Sequence record: MK373773.1
DNA: 44,241 nucleotides
Origin: Escherichia phage vB_EcoP_KAW1A4500
Reading direction: 5' to 3' (one strand)
The notes beneath the pieces are model-generated. The model had not been told where the DNA came from. It did no database searches and worked only from the letters and a program-made list of their open reading frames with translations. A program made the translations under genes and the position numbers. Position 1 is the stretch's first letter; each line of letters starts with the position of its first letter. Shown here in pieces: positions 15,234 to 44,241 of this stretch.

Positions 15234-15256
15234 ATTTACTGGACACTATAGAAGAG
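15234..15256 (+). promoter_or_regulatory. Phage RNAP promoter P6 (ATTTACTGGACACTATAGAAGAG)
   Basis: Exact consensus 23-mer. Confidence 0.85.
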
Positions 15257-34600: not shown

Positions 34601-35001
34601 CAAAAGCCTATGTGAACTCTATTGGGCGAGAAGACCAAGATGAATATTTGGAAGAGAAGTTATCGCCTAAAGGGTTGGCCTTTGGTGCAATGGGTATGAT
34701 GAGTACAACTGCTGTATTTAGTCTAGGTGGAGATTTCTTAGGTGGCCTAGGTGTTCTGCCTTCTGAGTTAGTACAATCCCGTTATGAGGCTGGCTTTCAG
34801 ACTAAGGGTTTGATAGACCAAATACCACTAGTAGGTGTTGGTCAAGATGCATATCGTTTAGCAGATTCTATAACTAAATATGCAGAGGGTGATACAGAAG
34901 GTGTAGATGTGGCACGTAGGGCTTTACGCTTAGTGCCTCTAACTAATGTAATAGGAATCCAGAACGCATTGCGTTATGGCTTAGATGAACTGGAGGATTG
35001 A
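31693..35001 (+). CDS. Large internal virion (ejection) protein, gp16-like (1102 aa)
   Basis: Largest ORF; GGAGG RBS; position equivalent to T7 gene 16. Confidence 0.75.
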   Translation: MEQDIKTNWAGYVQSTPEPFSIEAAPVSAPTIRQRNELQEQVLEAKADADILGAVGAAFQNEWLAFGGKRWYDRATADFTPQPDFEIQPEQREALRFKYGTDMMQTITEGVRSEDELNFRIQNADEDLERNKRIAQAGWVGSVATIGAAVLDPVGWVASIPTGGAAKVGLVGRAVRGAIAAGVSNAAIESVLVQGDMTRDLDDIMVALGSGMAMGGVIGAVARGRATKLSEQGDDRAASIVRSADAGDRYVRAVADDSIGAMRVKGEEVLTEGAFDVSSKGEDLLKTLQREGNAIDMTPRRWAGTLSALGTVVHSSQDASVRGLGARLFESPQGLGMQKASASLMQNTNLNRLKSADMNRFNDGFDLWLKENNINPVAGHTNSHYVQQYNEKVWEAVRIGMDESTPKSIRMAAEGQQAMYREALALRQRSGEAGFEKVKADDKYMPDIFDSMKARRQFSMHDKEDIIELFSRAYQNGSRKVPKEVADDIARAQVNRVADATLTGQLSFEKAMSGQTKAEYEALMRKAGFSDEEIEKMVEALDNKETRDNISNRAKMSLGLDVTQEYNGIRMRDFMNTNVEELTDNYMKEAAGGAALARQGFSTYQAALNAIDLVERNARNAAKDTKAHAQFEAESAKIRQSEPDYKKAQEKIEELKKRLKLKEKDEAAGLAIDEEIRQMREGLRLIMGKSIDSNPQDLSTKMLRRGRDITGVLRLGQMGFAQLGELANFMGEFGIAATTMALGKQFRFTSKALRNGDGFFRDKNLAEVERMVGYIGEDNWLTTKGARPDEFGDVTTVRGMMAHFDQSMNSIRRAQTNLSLFRMAQGSLERMTNRQIALSFIDHLEGKKIIPQKKLEELGLTQEFMTNLQKHYDANSKGSGLLGFDTMPYAMGETLANAIRRKSGLIIQRNFIGDEGIWMNKALGKTFAQLKSFSLVSGEKQFGRGIRHDKIGLAKKTAYGFALGSIVYAAKAYVNSIGREDQDEYLEEKLSPKGLAFGAMGMMSTTAVFSLGGDFLGGLGVLPSELVQSRYEAGFQTKGLIDQIPLVGVGQDAYRLADSITKYAEGDTEGVDVARRALRLVPLTNVIGIQNALRYGLDELED

Positions 35002-35963
35002 TGAGTTATACTTTCACAGAACATGTAGCCAATGGTACGCAAGTAACCTATCCCTTTAGATTTGCTGGCAGGGATAAAGGCTATCTTCGTGCCTCAGATG
35101 TGATAGTGGAATCTCTTCAAGGTAACACTTGGATTGAGGTTACATCTGGCTGGCAATTAACTGGTACGCATCAAATCACTTTTGATGTAGCACCTGTTGC
35201 AGGTTTGAAGTTCCGTATTCGAAGGGAAGTACAAAAGGAATATCCATACGCTGAGTTTGACCGTGGTGTTACCTTGGATATGAAGTCTTTAAATGGCTCT
35301 TTCATTCATATACTGGAGATTACACAGGAGTTACTTGATGGGTTTTATCCAGAAGGATACTTCATTAAGCAGAATGTAAGCTGGGGCGGCAATAAGATTA
35401 CTGACCTAGCTGATGGTGAGAATCCAAAAGATGCAGTAAATAAATCACAGCTAGATGCTATCGACAAGAAGCATACTGATTGGAACTCTGCACAAGATAT
35501 AGAGATTGCTGGTATTAAGAGAGGAATGGTGTCTGGTGTATCTCATCGCACTATTCCTTGGTATATGGTCGCCTCCGGTGGAGAGCAAATCATTCGACCA
35601 CCTTACTCATTTGATGATGCTATGGTGTTTATAAACGGTGTATTCCAGCATGAACTAGCAGGTGCAGTATCAGTGGGGTATAATGTTATAACCCTGTCCG
35701 AGCCATTACAGGCTGGGGATGAAGTTTATGTGCTTATCGGTAGTCGCTTAACCCCACCTACAAGTGCGGATACTATCCTCTTTACACAAGCAGTGAGTGA
35801 AGGTACACAATCTATCGACATTGTAACGGCTTTCCAACGTCTTGATGTATACTTGGATGGCCTGTATCAACCTAATAATGCTTATGAAATCGTAGGGTCT
35901 ACTATCACTTTCAGTGAGCCATTACCTGAGTGTGTCGTAAGTATGAAGCTACAACTAGTGTAA
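35001..35963 (+). CDS. Tail-fibre-type adaptor protein (T7 gp17 N-terminal domain homolog)
   Basis: ORF track 34998..35963 with ATG at 35001; shares the general N-terminal pattern of the T7 gp17 tail-attachment domain; length fits an adaptor rather than a full fibre. Confidence 0.75.
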   Translation: MSYTFTEHVANGTQVTYPFRFAGRDKGYLRASDVIVESLQGNTWIEVTSGWQLTGTHQITFDVAPVAGLKFRIRREVQKEYPYAEFDRGVTLDMKSLNGSFIHILEITQELLDGFYPEGYFIKQNVSWGGNKITDLADGENPKDAVNKSQLDAIDKKHTDWNSAQDIEIAGIKRGMVSGVSHRTIPWYMVASGGEQIIRPPYSFDDAMVFINGVFQHELAGAVSVGYNVITLSEPLQAGDEVYVLIGSRLTPPTSADTILFTQAVSEGTQSIDIVTAFQRLDVYLDGLYQPNNAYEIVGSTITFSEPLPECVVSMKLQLV

Positions 35964-39092: not shown

Positions 39093-39770
39093 GTGTTAGG
39101 TATTACAGGACAACGAAGTGTAAGTCATCAAGCTAAGGTTGCCACGGAAGTGGCTCCTATCGTTGATATCTCAGATGTGTCTGACGCTAACTCTTATCTA
39201 AACCAAAAGTACCTATCAGGTAAACAGGAAGGATATACTGTTCTGACTAAGAAAGGTTCACGTTATTCATTGTATGCTGCAACAGGTTCTAAGCCAGAAG
39301 ATAAGTGGTTGCCTTTAGAGCAAGCAACCCTACCTGATTCGAGTGCATTAGGGCTAATTGACACCATCGATGTTGAAGTTGCAAGTGCAAGCGACACAGT
39401 AGAGGTTAATGTAACCAAAGAGAGGACTGTGTGCATCCAGACGCCTATGAAGGACTTAGCAGGTGATACAGTTTACCGGCAAGAATTGACTGCCAACATT
39501 AACCTTACCATTAATGAAAACGGAAGCCCAAGCGATACGGTTAAATTAAACATATCAATTCCTAATTTGCCAGGAACATCTAGTGGGTCTTACTATACAG
39601 TTGACAATGTGCTGTGTACTTCTTTTGGAGACGACAGTCCTGTTATTGCCAATATAGATGTCGATAAGGCTACCACTAACTTGATTGCTGTTACACTTCG
39701 TAAAGAGACGGCAACAGATATTAGGCTGTCTCTTGTAATTAGGTGGTCAATGCCAGTGGGGGTTGTATAA
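39093..39770 (+). CDS. Paralog family member 3 (225 aa) with C-terminal extension
   Basis: ORF track; motif KYLSGKQEGYTVLTKKGSRYSLYAATGSKPEDKW followed by a Ser/Thr/Asn-rich extension. Confidence 0.6.
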   Translation: MLGITGQRSVSHQAKVATEVAPIVDISDVSDANSYLNQKYLSGKQEGYTVLTKKGSRYSLYAATGSKPEDKWLPLEQATLPDSSALGLIDTIDVEVASASDTVEVNVTKERTVCIQTPMKDLAGDTVYRQELTANINLTINENGSPSDTVKLNISIPNLPGTSSGSYYTVDNVLCTSFGDDSPVIANIDVDKATTNLIAVTLRKETATDIRLSLVIRWSMPVGVV

Positions 39771-40222: not shown

Positions 40223-40372
40223 ATGAAAAAGCTGTTTAAGTCTAAGAAAGTGGTAGGTGCACTGGTTGCACTGGTGATTGCTCTTGTTTCTGTAGGTCTT
40301 GGCGTAGACCTAGGTGAAGGTACGGAAGGCTCAGTCACTGACGTGGTATGCCAAGTAATCACCTGTGAATAA
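40223..40372 (+). CDS. Small membrane protein (49 aa), lysis-cassette associated
   Basis: ATG at 40223 after GGGAG; single hydrophobic segment VVGALVALVIALVSVGLGV; below ORF-track cutoff. Confidence 0.35.
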   Translation: MKKLFKSKKVVGALVALVIALVSVGLGVDLGEGTEGSVTDVVCQVITCE

Positions 40373-40586
40373 GGTGCTTGAGGTGGTGGCAGGTCTTATT
40401 GGCCTGCTGCTTGCCGCTAAGAAGAAGAAGGAAGAGAAGGAGGTACAAAGTGAGGCGAATCATGCTAGCGACAATCCTGCTGATTGGTTCGCTGATCACT
40501 TCAGGGTGTCAGACGGCGTTACCAGAGAATCCAAAGGTGAAACCTCTGAAGCCGACGCTTACGGCAGTCTACGAGGTGGACGATAG
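40365..40586 (+). CDS. Putative i-spanin (Rz-like) with N-terminal transmembrane segment (73 aa)
   Basis: ORF track; N-terminal hydrophobic VLEVVAGLIGLLLAA then charged region; overlapped by a lipoprotein ORF in another frame; shorter than typical i-spanins. Confidence 0.35.
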   Translation: MNKVLEVVAGLIGLLLAAKKKKEEKEVQSEANHASDNPADWFADHFRVSDGVTRESKGETSEADAYGSLRGGR

Positions 40587-40659
40587 AGTCTGCTTCAGTA
40601 AACCTGACGCTACAAAATTGGGTCTGTACATTCTCTCGCTAGAACGCGGATATAATTAA
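40462..40659 (+). CDS. Putative o-spanin (Rz1-like) lipoprotein (65 aa)
   Basis: Internal ATG of ORF 40378..40659; signal peptide plus lipobox MLATILLIGSLITSGC; Pro-rich mature region. Confidence 0.5.
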   Translation: MLATILLIGSLITSGCQTALPENPKVKPLKPTLTAVYEVDDRVCFSKPDATKLGLYILSLERGYN

Positions 40660-40688
40660 TACATAGTTTTATGTATCAGTGTCTTACG

Positions 40689-40711
40689 ATTTACTGGACA
40701 CTATAGAAGAG
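40689..40711 (+). promoter_or_regulatory. Phage RNAP promoter P10 for tailspike genes (ATTTACTGGACACTATAGAAGAG)
   Basis: Exact consensus 23-mer upstream of the tailspike remnant and endosialidase. Confidence 0.85.
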
Positions 40712-40790
40712 ATGAGATAGTGCCGTTCTTTTGAGCGGCCTATTACTAGCCAATCTTCATAGGGAGGGTTGGGAAGTAATAGGAGAGTAT

Positions 40791-41126
40791 ATGGCTAAGT
40801 TAACTAAACCCAAGACAACGGGCTTACTACATAGAGATACTGTACTAGCTAACTTATTAGATAATTTACTATCTAAAAGGCGTGTTACATTTGAAGGTGT
40901 AGCCCCAAGTGAAGATACTAAAATTGAGATAGAAGTACCTGTAACAGGAGACTTAGATTCTTCGTGGGCATCAATTGTATCATTAAGTACACCTGCACTT
41001 TGTACAGCTTGGATCACTAAACTGTCAGATACTACTTTAGAGATTCATGTCTTTCATACAGCACAAGTAGAAATAGACATAGAGGTAGATGTTTACGTTC
41101 TAGGTAAGCACACTGTCAGTGCGTAA
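40791..41126 (+). CDS. Truncated tailspike N-terminal (adaptor-binding) remnant, 111 aa
   Basis: ORF track 40731..41126 with ATG at 40791 after AGGAG; a roughly 111-aa ORF before the endosialidase is described for phage K1E (recalled literature). Confidence 0.6.
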   Translation: MAKLTKPKTTGLLHRDTVLANLLDNLLSKRRVTFEGVAPSEDTKIEIEVPVTGDLDSSWASIVSLSTPALCTAWITKLSDTTLEIHVFHTAQVEIDIEVDVYVLGKHTVSA

Positions 41127-41193
41127 GCACTGCTTTTCGCGCAACTTTTCTTAAAGGTTATCATGATGGTAGCCTTTCAGAAAAGGAGGTTAC

Positions 41194-43629
41194 ATGATTC
41201 AAAGACTAGGTTCTTCATTAGTTAAATTCAAGAGTAAAATAGCAGGTGCAATCTGGCGTAACTTGGATGACAAGCTCACCGAGGTTGTATCGCTTAAAGA
41301 TTTTGGAGCCAAAGGTGATGGTAAGACAAACGACCAAGATGCAGTAAATGCAGCTATGGCTTCAGGTAAGAGAATTGATGGTGCTGGTGCTACTTACAAA
41401 GTATCATCTTTACCTGATATGGAGCGATTCTATAACACCCGCTTCGTATGGGAACGTTTAGCAGGTCAACCTCTTTACTATGTGAGTAAAGGTTTTATCA
41501 ATGGTGAACTATATAAAATCACGGATAACCCTTATTACAATGCTTGGCCTCAAGACAAAGCGTTTGTATATGAGAACGTGATATATGCACCTTACATGGG
41601 TAGTGACCGTCATGGTGTTAGTCGTCTGCATGTATCATGGGTTAAGTCTGGTGACGATGGTCAAACATGGTCTACACCAGAGTGGTTAACTGATCTGCAT
41701 CCAGATTACCCTACAGTGAACTATCATTGTATGAGTATGGGTGTATGTCGCAACCGTCTGTTTGCCATGATTGAAACACGTACTTTAGCCAAGAACGCAC
41801 TAACCAATTGTGCATTGTGGGATCGCCCTATGTCTCGTAGTCTGCATCTTACTGGTGGTATCACTAAGGCTGCAAATCAGCGTTATGCAACAATCCATGT
41901 ACCTGATCACGGATTATTCGTGGGCGATTTTGTTAGCTTCTCTAATTCTGCGGTAACAGGTGTAACTGGTGATATGAAAGTTGCAACAGTTATAGATAAG
42001 GACAACTTCACGGTTCTTACAGCCAATCAGCAGACCTCTGATTTGAACAATGCTGGAAAGAATTGGCACATGGGTACTTCCTTCCATAAGTCTCCATGGC
42101 GTAAGACAGATCTTGGCCTGATACCTCGTGTCACTGAAGTTCATAGCTTTGCTACTATTGATAACAATGGCTTTGTTATGGGTTATCACCAAGGCGACGT
42201 AGCTCCACGCGAAGTTGGTCTTTTCTACTTCCCTGATGCTTTTAACAATCCATCTAATTATGTTCGTCGTCAGATACCATCTGAGTACGAACCGGATGCT
42301 GCAGAGCCATGCATCAAGTACTATGACGGTGTGTTATACCTTATCACTCGTGGTACTCGTGGTGACAGGCTTGGAAGCTCTTTGCATCGCAGTAGAGATA
42401 TAGGTCAAACTTGGGAGTCACTAAGATTTCCACATAATGTGCATCATACTACTTTACCGTTTGCTAAGGTAGGAGATGATCTTATTATGTTTGGTTCAGA
42501 ACGTGCAGAAAATGAATGGGAAGCAGGTGCACCTGATGATCGTTACAAGGCATCTTATCCCCGCACCTTCTATGCACGATTGAATGTAAACAAGTGGAGT
42601 GCAGATGACATTGAATGGGTTAACATCACAGACCAAATCTATCAGGGTGACATTGTTAACTCCAGTGTAGGTGTAGGTTCGGTGGTAGTTAAAGACAGTT
42701 ACATTTACTATATCTTTGGTGGTGAAAACCATTTCAACCCAATGACTTATGGTGACAACAAAGATAAAGACCCATTTATTGGACATGGACACCCTACTGA
42801 TATATACTGCTATAAGATGCAGATTGCAAATGACAGTCGTGTATCTCGTAAGTTTACATATGGTGCAACTCCTGGTCAGGCTATACCTACTTTCATGGGT
42901 ACTGATGGTATTCGTACTATTCCTGCTCCACTTCACTTATCAGGAGAGGTAGTTGCCGCAGATATGACTGTAGAACATCTTACCCTGAAGGCGAGTACAA
43001 GTGCTAATATTCGCTCAGAGATGCTGATGGAAGGTGAATATGGGTTCATTGGTAAGACTATACCAACGGATAACCCAACCGCACAACGTGTTATCATCTC
43101 GGGTGGAGAAGGTACAGCAGCAGATAAAGGTGCTCAGATTACCCTACATGGAGCAGGTTCTAGTACTTCTAGACGCGCAGTGTATAATGCCAATGAGCAC
43201 TTGTTCAAAAGTGGGGCTATCATGCCATACAACGATAACCTGTACCCTGCTGGCGGTCCTCATAATAGATTCACCACTATCCATCTTACAAGTGACCCTA
43301 TTATTACATCGGATGCCACTCATAAGTATGGCTCACAAGGTATTGATGAGAGTGTACTAAAGGCATGGGGTAAGGTTGCCTTCAAGCAGTACAAGTTGAT
43401 TGGCGAGATGTCTCGTGGTGTGCATCACACTCACTTTGGTGTATTGGCACAAGACATTGTAGCTGCTTTTGCATCCGAAGGGTTAGATGCAATCGACTTC
43501 GGCATTGTCTCCTTCGAAGAAGGTCAGTTTGGTGTTAGATATAGTGAAATCTTAATCTTGGAGGCTGCTTATACTCGCTATCGTTTAGACAAGTTAGAGG
43601 AGATGTATGCCACTAATAAAAGCAGTTAA
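41194..43629 (+). CDS. Endo-N-acetylneuraminidase (endosialidase) tailspike, 811 aa
   Basis: Two Asp-box sialidase motifs (SGDDGQTW, SRDIGQTW); N-terminus MIQRLGSSLVKFKSKIAG...GAKGDGKTND and 811-aa length match K1E/K1-5 endosialidase as recalled. Confidence 0.88.
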   Translation: MIQRLGSSLVKFKSKIAGAIWRNLDDKLTEVVSLKDFGAKGDGKTNDQDAVNAAMASGKRIDGAGATYKVSSLPDMERFYNTRFVWERLAGQPLYYVSKGFINGELYKITDNPYYNAWPQDKAFVYENVIYAPYMGSDRHGVSRLHVSWVKSGDDGQTWSTPEWLTDLHPDYPTVNYHCMSMGVCRNRLFAMIETRTLAKNALTNCALWDRPMSRSLHLTGGITKAANQRYATIHVPDHGLFVGDFVSFSNSAVTGVTGDMKVATVIDKDNFTVLTANQQTSDLNNAGKNWHMGTSFHKSPWRKTDLGLIPRVTEVHSFATIDNNGFVMGYHQGDVAPREVGLFYFPDAFNNPSNYVRRQIPSEYEPDAAEPCIKYYDGVLYLITRGTRGDRLGSSLHRSRDIGQTWESLRFPHNVHHTTLPFAKVGDDLIMFGSERAENEWEAGAPDDRYKASYPRTFYARLNVNKWSADDIEWVNITDQIYQGDIVNSSVGVGSVVVKDSYIYYIFGGENHFNPMTYGDNKDKDPFIGHGHPTDIYCYKMQIANDSRVSRKFTYGATPGQAIPTFMGTDGIRTIPAPLHLSGEVVAADMTVEHLTLKASTSANIRSEMLMEGEYGFIGKTIPTDNPTAQRVIISGGEGTAADKGAQITLHGAGSSTSRRAVYNANEHLFKSGAIMPYNDNLYPAGGPHNRFTTIHLTSDPIITSDATHKYGSQGIDESVLKAWGKVAFKQYKLIGEMSRGVHHTHFGVLAQDIVAAFASEGLDAIDFGIVSFEEGQFGVRYSEILILEAAYTRYRLDKLEEMYATNKSS

Positions 43630-43756
43630 GCAAGCTGCTGTACGCCAGAACATAGAAGAGCTTATTCAATCAGGACGTGACCCTAAGCAGGCTTATGCCA
43701 TTGCTAAGGGTGTACAACGTCGTGTCATGAAGAAACCTTCTGCATCTTCTGCGTGA
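43607..43756 (+). CDS. Small basic protein (49 aa), last gene before right terminal repeat
   Basis: ATG at 43607 after GAGGAG, overlapping the endosialidase 3-prime end in another frame; below ORF-track cutoff. Confidence 0.35.
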   Translation: MPLIKAVKQAAVRQNIEELIQSGRDPKQAYAIAKGVQRRVMKKPSASSA

Positions 43757-43974
43757 GCAGGTTAATATCTTAGTGTACACAAGGGCAGACCTAGGTTTGC
43801 TCTTAGTGCCATCAAAGGAGGGTGTAGGTATGTTATCTTTGTTGTGTATACTCAGTGATGTCCTAGGTCGTAAGAGGTACATTCTTAGTGAAGACCAAAT
43901 AAGGGACGAGAAGATACGGAGGTCGCTCACAAAGTAACCAAAGTCAAAATTTTGATATAGGCGTGTGTGAGGTG

Positions 43975-44241
43975 TCTCGCCCTCGCCCTCGCCGGATTTC
44001 CCCCATATGGGGCCGCGCTGCGGTTGGCTTGGGAGTTGGGCTGGGCTGGTCCGTCTTCGACGGGTGGCCTAGGGCTTGCCGAGGTCTGCTCTTAGTGGCT
44101 GCACAAGGAGAACGCCTAGGAAGCGCTAGGGCACGCCTTAGTATTGGACAAGGTGATTGCCTTAGTGCAACCGCTTAGGGCTTACACAGGCCGTTTTAGG
44201 GCCATTCCTGAGCTTTTGACAGGGTGGGCGTGGGTGGGCTA
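43975..44241. repeat. Right direct terminal repeat (DTR), 267 bp
   Basis: Identical to 1..267; preceded by CTTAGTG-type short repeats at about 43770..43890. Confidence 0.9.

Follow-up and report, generated by a model that had tools for sequence, protein, structure and literature searches.

Layout and proposed expression of the right-end tailspike operon

The window, that is, the whole 44,241-bp stretch of DNA analysed here, is a complete K1E-like Vectrevirus genome with 267-bp terminal repeats. A tailspike cassette lies at its right end, behind a promoter for the phage RNA polymerase and with a conserved leader and intergenic spacer; on the plus strand, the order is promoter, structured leader of 85 nt, gene 46, hairpin-bearing spacer of 67 nt and gene 47. 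We consider with a probability of about 0.9 that a K1E-type Vectrevirus (an SP6-like podophage) has its right-end tailspike operon here and that this operon works by the mechanism proposed below. Such a cassette is ordinary for the K1E-like group, and its anatomy and reading are already published for phage K1E. For the present genome, its anatomy and homologies, the selective constraint on gene 46 and the junctions of the mosaic were established directly, and each feature named in the original prediction, made earlier from the DNA letters, was confirmed at its position.

The promoter (40689..40711, plus strand) is of the SP6 type and consists of the exact 23-mer ATTTACTGGACACTATAGAAGAG, which recurs at 15234 and matches the majority base at every position, as expected of the perfect consensus that had been predicted. 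Its +1, by comparison with SP6 promoters, is presumably G40706. Promoter-like sites with three mismatches or fewer number 8 in the genome against 0 expected from shuffles, and the core ACACTATAG occurs at 11 genome sites, including this one. The name P10 given to it earlier was that prediction's own numbering; by our count, the cassette promoter is the last of the 11. In the records X78310 and Y10025, too, the corresponding position carries an annotated promoter.

The leader folds into two adjacent hairpins (40722..40782, plus strand) with a minimum free energy of −33.9 kcal/mol (z −5.7), and none of 200 shuffled sequences folded equally well. Covariation was uninformative because the leader is nearly invariant in seven relatives, and no Rfam family matched positions 40300–44241 at E values up to 1. 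Simple scans showed neither sigma-70 promoters nor intrinsic terminators in excess, and no terminator was found to mark the transcript's 3′ end. During late expression, the phage's own RNA polymerase would start at this promoter and produce an mRNA that carries the structured 85-nt leader and then three ORFs in turn. Beyond gene 47, and overlapping its end by 23 nt, lies a small, conserved 49-aa ORF (43607..43756, plus strand; phrog_2423, E 1.9e-22) of the K1-5 gene 48/SP6 gp51 family, which is annotated at the equivalent place in K1-5, fTuEco01, ACG-C91 and others.

The endosialidase gene 47

Gene 47 (41194..43629, plus strand) encodes an 811-aa endosialidase tailspike with a 90.3 kDa precursor. 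It follows a conserved intergenic spacer (41127..41193, plus strand) with an 11-bp hairpin at 41153–41177 and the ribosome-binding site AAGGAGG at 41183–41189; this spacer is nearly identical in K1E, K1-5, K5 and the metagenomic contig L014, and its fold has a z score of −3.0. Five Pfam endosialidase domains were found in gp47, namely End_N_terminal, End_beta_propel, End_beta_barrel, End_tail_spike and Peptidase_S74. The six-bladed catalytic beta-propeller (PF12217, aa 103–545, E 8.7e-222) carries an inserted beta-barrel (PF12195, aa 214–296, E 7.4e-45), and aa 38–705 align to the endosialidase of phage K1F, endoNF (PDB 1v0e/3gvl), with long identical stretches, making this part near-identical to the crystallised core. 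Searching the translation with the pattern S.D.G.[TS]W returned two Asp-boxes, SGDDGQTW at aa 152–159 (41647..41670, plus strand) and SRDIGQTW at aa 400–407 (42391..42414, plus strand). The endoNF active site comprises E581, R596 and R647, residue numbers attributed to Stummeyer 2005. With a single offset of 210, these residues become E371, R386 and R437 of gp47, all within stretches identical to endoNF. Judged by domain content, gp47 is a complete endosialidase, in line with the predicted 811-aa enzyme with two Asp-box motifs.

The propeller is followed by the stalk (End_tail_spike, PF12219, E 1.5e-83; aa 546–705, 42829..43308, plus strand) and by a C-terminal intramolecular chaperone (43309..43629, plus strand), recognised through Peptidase_S74 (PF13884) at aa 706–763 and a match to PDB 3gw6. 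An SDATHK motif at position 706 supplies a Ser-Lys dyad, Ser706 and Lys711. By analogy with its family, the S74 domain would aid trimer folding and then be cut off at Ser706, so that the chaperone is presumably released by autocleavage with computed products of 78.5 and 11.7 kDa. The beta-propeller, for its part, would depolymerise the alpha-2,8-polysialic acid of the K1 capsule and thereby let the phage drill to the outer membrane.

Gene 46 and its origin

Gene 46 (40791..41126, plus strand) starts with ATG, 5 nt downstream of a ribosome-binding site, AGGAG, that can be read at 40781..40785 on the same strand. Its 111-aa product belongs to the family of K1E gp46, the "12 kDa ORF" (phrog_15083; profile match over 111 of 111 positions, E 9.9e-69). 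Relatives with 86–100% amino acid identity occur in 26 phage records, and a word-indexed search returned four clusters, every one 111 aa long, at 58–95% identity. A HMMER search of 1.84 billion representative proteins for distant relatives recovered the protein's own cluster only, and scans of viral and metagenome contigs found just seven relatives, all close. Searched against Pfam, gp46 matched no domain, enzymatic or otherwise.

The N-terminus had been predicted to be the adaptor-binding part of a second tailspike, and here the prediction was borne out: codons 1–26 (40791..40868, plus strand), which encode MAKLTKP and about 19 further residues, form a docking module common to full-length position-46 tailspikes. 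Aligned with the K5 lyase N-terminus, gp46 gave a pairwise BLASTP E value of 8e-8 (37% identity over 64 aa), an E value of 0.005 against PDB 2x3h and a profile-profile probability of 96.9%; the same N-terminus is homologous to the EC22.5-2 spike. When the alignment of 40791..41126 with K5 lyase and the SP6 tailspike was carried out as had been proposed, the expected likeness was thus found for K5 lyase, whereas SP6 gp46 has "LTKP" alone in common.

How far does this likeness extend? In shuffle tests, the similarity to tailspikes was limited to about the first 26 residues, and past the docking module the similarity to the K5 lyase KflA was at chance level (p 0.36 for aa 15–111, 0.27 for aa 27–111). 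At the DNA level, the alignment of gene 46 with kflA decays about 45 nt into the ORF; on this and the shuffle tests we reject a recent kflA truncation. Residues 27–111 resemble nothing else among the 1.84 billion representative proteins. The term "truncated remnant" used in the original prediction therefore fits some 26 residues only: the other 85 have no counterpart elsewhere and are kept by selection, which makes the ORF more than a shortened K5 lyase.

Purifying selection acts on gene 46. Its dN/dS is 0.15–0.44, with bootstrap intervals that mostly exclude 1, as against about 1 in shifted frames; for aa 27–111 alone the ratio is 0.41–0.61. The gene is exactly 111 codons long in all non-frameshifted alleles, including one of only 58% identity, and up to a dS of about 0.88 the alleles examined have no stops or length changes except in K1A and mutPK1A2. 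In phage mutPK1A2 a frameshift shortens gp46 to 46 aa, and in the K1A sequence gp46 matches in two pieces only; residues 47–111 are thus dispensable for growth on K1 hosts. Two metagenomic contigs bear on the use of the gene: in L014 the same small gene, leader and spacer stand ahead of a spike of 663 aa that has a relative in siphophage Sa179lw, and in L023 they stand ahead of a 727-aa pectate-lyase-like spike, neither of the two being an endosialidase. Positions 46 and 47 thus assort independently.

The cassette had also been described as visibly AT-rich, and a GC profile bears this out to a modest extent: its GC content of 42.1% is below that of the genome (45.2%) and of the lysis genes before it (46.1%) and lies in the lowest 1.5% of same-size windows. 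The bias is real and concentrated in gene 46 (37.2% GC), whose GC3 of 0.223 is lower than in any other of the 31 ORFs with 100 aa or more (mean 0.405, sd 0.06); gene 47, with a GC3 of 0.34, is inside the range of other tail genes.

What, then, is gene 46? Selected, constant in length and reused before non-endosialidase spikes, it looks like a maintained placeholder and not a decaying K5-lyase fragment. We give even odds to the full form of this reading, in which gp46 stands on its own as an allele that selection maintains for the adapter's first docking site, is composed of the docking module and a unique small beta-rich domain, and circulates among Vectreviruses by recombination, paired with at least three second tailspikes and with both adapter alleles. 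It is unlikely that the gene is instead a non-functional, pseudogene-like leftover between the promoter and the endosialidase gene, at a site where the DNA flanks alone matter. Several observations would suit such decay, namely the lack of an enzymatic domain or Pfam match, the frameshifted allele of the viable phage mutPK1A2 along with the split K1A match, and the lowest GC3 in the genome, which is expected under weak codon constraint. However, decay is difficult to reconcile with a dN/dS well below that of the other frames, with an ORF intact over such divergence outside K1A and mutPK1A2, with a ribosome-binding site of its own, and with the retention of the gene beside three different downstream spikes.

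According to a review (PMC5380687), Clarke 2000 hypothesised that K1E arose from a K5-type phage by gain of an endosialidase and truncation of kflA. Gene 46 indeed shares with kflA its locus, promoter, leader and first seven codons, in addition to the 37% identity noted above, and the motif FGAxGDxTxDDT of the lyase may persist as a faint trace, F34-E-G-V-A-P-S-E-D-T43. Yet direct truncation of kflA is very unlikely: in their flanks, K1-5 and the window agree at more than 95% of positions, but the ORF bodies cannot be aligned, similarity beyond the docking module does not exceed chance, and the HMMER search returned no family but gp46's own. The gene may be of ancient origin from some other tailspike. 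Highly doubtful, too, is the idea that gp46 might be a minimal receptor-binding knob, a docking peptide joined to a small lectin-like beta-sandwich that would aid adsorption. It draws on an AlphaFold2 model, built from a 5-sequence alignment, in which residues 26–104 are predicted to be all-beta and for which the best Foldseek probabilities fall on small fibre-tip domains (the R1 pyocin fibre foot 6cxb, TM 0.50, probability 0.97, and the Pam1 tailspike RBD), as well as on the selection acting on aa 27–111. But confidence in the model is low (pLDDT 59.5), and a Foldseek search of the PDB yielded no match with E below 0.3; moreover, K1E is restricted to K1 hosts according to reviews, and frameshift alleles retain growth on K1.

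Proposed docking on gp37 and exchange of spikes

The placeholder reading gives gp46 a partner, the adapter gp37. Outside the cassette, a tblastn search with K1E gp37 ("endosialidase adaptor protein") located gene 37 (35001..35963, plus strand), whose 320-aa product is 98.4% identical to its K1E counterpart over 320 aa and has an N-terminal Phage_T7_tail domain (PF03906), as befits a separate adapter with a T7-gp17-like N-terminus and no body for receptor binding. Both docking peptides are present exactly, MAKLTKP on gp46 and the undecapeptide MIQRLGSSLVK on gp47 (codons 1–11, read at 41194..41226, plus strand); in Salmonella phage SE29, the position-47 spike begins with the undecapeptide as well. 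The reviews PMC6872550, PMC6966330 and PMC5380687, which summarise Leiman 2007, Stummeyer 2006 and Scholl 2001, provide the framework: the heptapeptide and the undecapeptide dock on gp37 (PMC6872550, citing Leiman 2007), and for K1E and K1-5 it is known from cryo-EM that both proteins are attached to gp37 in the virion (reviews including PMC6872550). For the present genome, we read the docking of gp46 and gp47 by likeness to these phages. The docking module of gp46, from residue 1 to somewhere between residue 7 and about 26, would attach to the first site on the gp37 trimer, and the undecapeptide of gp47 would dock on the second. Because gp46 has no enzymatic body, it would occupy or cap the first site without adding host specificity.

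A strict coupling between the K1E-type docking half of gp37 and the small gp46 is refuted by ULINTec6, in which the small gene occurs together with an adapter of the K1-5 type. Strict co-adaptation fails likewise in SE29, where a K1E-like adapter half is paired with a full-length SP6-type spike.

The predicted K1E-type arrangement was found throughout. In K1E (AM084415; earlier X78310, with the gp90 endosialidase and the "12 kDa ORF"), promoter, leader, 111-aa gene, spacer and 811-aa endosialidase follow in identical order, collinear with genes 45-46-47 and with 89.6% nucleotide identity over the cassette, the same docking peptides and a 98% identical gp37. Two segments differ: the present gene-46 allele is of the UTI89UKE2/PhiNW-E1 type (100% amino acid identity, as against 88% to K1E), and the third of gene 47 that encodes stalk and chaperone is of the K1A/fTuEco01 type, the stalk being a mosaic segment with a sliding identity of 99–100% to fTuEco01 and only 62–76% nucleotide identity to K1E. 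Over the whole region, the K1E-like phage fTuEco01 is 98.4% identical to the present genome. The proposed host-range change by cassette exchange is illustrated by K1-5 (AY370674; K5 lyase gp46 and endosialidase gp47). This phage has the same promoter, leader, MAKLTKP codons, spacer and endosialidase, but between the same flanks a 632-aa K5 lyase takes the place of the 111-aa protein, and the docking half of its gp37 (aa 163–320) is only about 50% identical to ours.

Among relatives with different spikes, two stretches are near-invariant: (i) the promoter and leader together with the opening codons of gene 46; and (ii) the intergenic spacer with the first codons of gene 47. These stretches would serve as homologous landing pads through which recombination can swap the spike at either position and change the host range. 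The cassette determines host range, here the K1 capsule found on neonatal-meningitis and on avian pathogenic E. coli, and represents textbook modular tailspike exchange, of use for engineering phages and for therapeutics and reagents based on endosialidases; all this was known before from K1E, K1-5 and K1F. The only, and small, addition is that the "truncated" partner gene 46 behaves as a conserved, selected gene reused with other tailspikes, which bears on the need to cap empty adapter sites and on the interconversion of single-spike and dual-spike phages.

More distant systems share parts of this design. K1F endoNF (PDB 1V0E, 3GVL) has the same catalytic beta-propeller, beta-barrel insert, stalk and C-terminal chaperone, but, according to reviews, it attaches by its own T7-gp17-like N-terminal capsid-binding domain, in contrast to the short docking peptide and separate gp37 of the present phage. 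KP32- and KP34-like phages of Klebsiella, as described in a review (Latka 2019, PMC6872550), likewise have truncated second receptor-binding proteins, short proteins that retain only a conserved docking peptide and are proposed there to be left over or to serve for a time as the docking place of a newly acquired spike. These phages differ from ours in genus and in docking peptide, use an anchor-branch where a separate adapter is found here, and are unrelated in sequence.

A K1E-type tailspike cassette

The window has identical 267-bp GC-rich direct repeats at its two ends (1–267 and 43975–44241) and so represents the whole of a linear phage genome. Genome-wide it is most similar to the K1E-like Vectreviruses SHAK7704, fTuEco01 and the K1E isolate KY435490 (~95–96% identity), and over the left 25 kb identity to the nearest deposited genomes is only about 95–96%. 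The final operon ahead of the right terminal repeat had been predicted to be a K1E-type cassette, fitting a change of host range by tailspike exchange, in which a dedicated promoter precedes a truncated 111-aa tailspike remnant and an endosialidase. We found all of these elements at their predicted positions, collinear with K1E genes 45-46-47, together with the adapter gp37 and both docking peptides, and this interpretation is supported. This very gp46/gp47/gp37 arrangement is set out in reviews of the work of Leiman 2007, Stummeyer 2006 and Scholl 2001 (PMC6872550, PMC6966330, PMC5380687). Thus, the arrangement is the published, already known K1E-type tailspike cassette, carried by a slightly divergent, mosaic K1E-like genome. 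Our additions are modest: a docking homology longer than the published peptide, a selected orphan domain in gp46, and the association of the small gene with other spikes and both adapter alleles.

The predicted promoter is the 23-mer ATTTACTGGACACTATAGAAGAG at 40689–40711, the same sequence as a site at 15234 and one of eight window sites with at most three mismatches (shuffled sequences gave none); the core of this SP6-type phage-polymerase promoter occurs in 11 copies in the window. The leader, 85 nt long on the assumption, taken from SP6 promoters, of a transcription start at G40706, contains two adjacent plus-strand hairpins (40722–40782, −33.9 kcal/mol, z −5.7), and an 11-bp plus-strand hairpin lies in the spacer, within 41145–41185, just upstream of the gene 47 ribosome binding site (z −3.0). 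Across K1E, K1-5, K5 and metagenomic relatives hardly anything changes in the promoter, leader or intergenic spacer, whereas the ORF bodies differ. The hairpins flank gene 46 in a nearly unchanging form that leaves no covariation information, and neither matches an Rfam family; possible roles are mRNA stabilisation, processing or translational coupling.

The prediction that the cassette is AT-rich also held (42.1% GC, against 46.1% for the preceding lysis genes and 45.2% for the genome), its GC content falling within the lowest 1.5% of same-size windows. This bias is concentrated in gene 46 (37.2% GC), whose GC3 of 0.223 is below that of every other ORF among the 31 compared (mean 0.405, sd 0.06); gene 47, with a GC3 of 0.34, is inside the range of the other tail genes.

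Two further features lie upstream. A 225-aa ORF at 39093–39770, between a gp42-like gene and the M15 peptidase (endolysin), is an accessory insertion: a 678-nt CDS is annotated at this place in fTuEco01, UTI89UKE2 and mutPK1A2, and the gene tables of K1E and K1-5 list no matching CDS. A small AT-rich hairpin (40659–40676, ATACATA-GTTT-TATGTAT) has the final base of the spanin-like gene's stop codon as its first position and stops 12 nt short of the cassette promoter; in relatives its stem is kept and substitutions fall in the loop only.

Gene 46: docking module and orphan domain

Gene 46 (40791–41126, plus strand) encodes the expected 111 aa, and AGGAG precedes its ATG by 5 nt. By sequence, its product is a member of the K1E gp46 family, the "12 kDa ORF" of the 1990s K1E sequence, and matches phrog_15083 across all 111 positions. 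Is it the remnant of a tailspike? When aligned with the N-terminus of K5 lyase, gp46 showed 24/65 identities (pairwise E 8e-8), K5 lyase (2x3h) was its sole PDB hit (E 0.005), and profile-profile comparison of residues 1–54 with the N-termini of four position-46 spikes, those encoded at this place in relatives, gave 96.9% probability. In shuffle tests, residues 1–14 and 8–111 scored far above chance against both K5 lyase and the unrelated 707-aa EC22.5-2 spike, while residues 15–111 and 27–111 did not (p 0.09–0.39). The shared docking module thus spans ~26 residues and exceeds the published heptapeptide. With SP6 gp46, also proposed for comparison, gp46 shares "LTKP" and nothing further. The remaining 85 residues had no match, and a HMMER search of 1.84 billion representative proteins returned only gp46's own cluster. 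Similarity to tailspikes is thus confined to the N-terminal ~26 residues, beyond which there is no recognisable K5-lyase fragment.

Gene 46 has been proposed to be a truncation of kflA, the K5 lyase gene (an idea that PMC5380687 credits to Clarke 2000). The shared N-terminus fits such an origin. A recent truncation is argued against by the DNA alignment with K1-5 and K5, in which similarity fades ~45 nt into the ORF and returns ~26 nt before its stop, within a conserved junction, and by the TAA that ends K5 lyase, which is also present in this junction, out of frame for gene 46. The final eight codons of gene 46 (41100–41126) sit in the same junction. As a modest refinement, we read gp46 beyond ~26 residues as an orphan domain under purifying selection. 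Nei-Gojobori dN/dS was 0.08–0.41 across eight alleles, compared with ~1 or more in the other two frames; with a metagenomic allele (58% protein identity) it was 0.33–0.44 at a dS of ~0.7–0.9, with bootstrap intervals excluding 1, and for codons 27–111 alone 0.41–0.61. All alleles without a frameshift have exactly 111 codons. The exception is the K1A/mutPK1A2 lineage: K1A (EF507428) matches gp46 in two pieces only, and in mutPK1A2 (L010 3201–3341) a 1-nt deletion cuts gp46 to 46 aa, yet this phage is viable and grows on K1 hosts. Under laboratory conditions, then, the phage can do without residues 47–111, even though purifying selection acts elsewhere. A weak AlphaFold2 model (pLDDT 59.5) suggests a disordered N-terminus (1–16) followed by an all-beta domain (26–104); Foldseek with this model found nothing significant, the best probabilities going to small fibre-tip beta-sandwiches.

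Gene 47: the endosialidase

In the product of gene 47 (41194–43629, plus strand, 811 aa), Pfam recognises the full set of five endosialidase domains (End_N_terminal, End_beta_propel with E 8.7e-222, End_beta_barrel, End_tail_spike and Peptidase_S74), and the two anticipated Asp-boxes are present (residues 152–159 and 400–407). Residues 38–705 align with long identical stretches to the crystallised K1F endoNF, and E371, R386 and R437 occupy the positions of the endoNF catalytic residues E581, R596 and R647. The S74 chaperone domain begins at Ser706 (S-D-A-T-H-K711), which predicts a mature spike of 78.5 kDa from a 90.3-kDa precursor. A conserved 49-aa ORF (43607–43756; phrog_2423) shares its first 23 nt with the end of the gene; it is gene 48 in K1-5 and is annotated as similar to SP6 gp51 in ACG-C91, and it is absent from the annotation of the K1E record AM084415.

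Exchange of spikes and adapter alleles

The 3.1-kb cassette region is 98.4% identical to fTuEco01 and 89.6% to K1E. The cassette in the window is a mosaic: overall it is closest to fTuEco01, yet in gene 46 it carries the UTI89UKE2/PhiNW-E1 allele (100% aa identity). The stalk and chaperone start of gene 47 (42850–43450, aa ~553–752) exist as two deeply divergent alleles, and the window carries the K1A/fTuEco01 type (99–100% to fTuEco01, 93–97% to vB_EcoP_C and UTI89UKE2), with only 62–76% nucleotide identity to K1E, PhiNW-E1 and ULINTec6, phages that share at least 89% identity with it in the propeller part. On the left, the breakpoint falls at a Pfam domain boundary, aa 546.

In K1-5-type phages, the K5 lyase gene lies between the same flanks in place of the small ORF. 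Two metagenomic Vectrevirus contigs have the same promoter, leader, 111-aa gp46 homologue and spacer, followed by spikes other than endosialidases: in L014 (1–2548) a 663-aa spike (N-terminus MLQRLSSKLVR, body 47% identical to the siphophage Sa179lw tail spike), and in L023 (3416–6084) a 727-aa pectate-lyase-like spike that ends in an S74 chaperone and shares 98% identity with the spike at position 47 of KMB14, a phage that itself has a full-length position-46 spike. Positions 46 and 47 thus assort independently, and the small gene has been paired with three or more different second spikes.

The gp46 heptapeptide MAKLTKP and the gp47 undecapeptide MIQRLGSSLVK dock on two gp37 sites (PMC6872550, citing Leiman 2007), and both are exact in the window. 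The gp37 gene lies at 35001–35963, its product 98.4% identical to K1E gp37. K1E-type phages and K1-5 share ~97% identity over residues 1–162, whereas the docking half (residues 163–320; window 35487–35960) occurs as K1E-type and K1-5-type alleles that are ~50% identical. All small-gene phage records but ULINTec6 hold the K1E-type half (at least 80% identity; ACG-C91 just 81.6%). In ULINTec6 the small gene occurs alongside a K1-5-type adapter, and in Salmonella phage SE29 full-length SP6-type spikes accompany a K1E-like docking half. As a further modest refinement, the small gene thus keeps company with other tailspikes and with either adapter allele, and its coupling to the adapter reflects descent, not necessity, consistent with docking through short conserved peptides.
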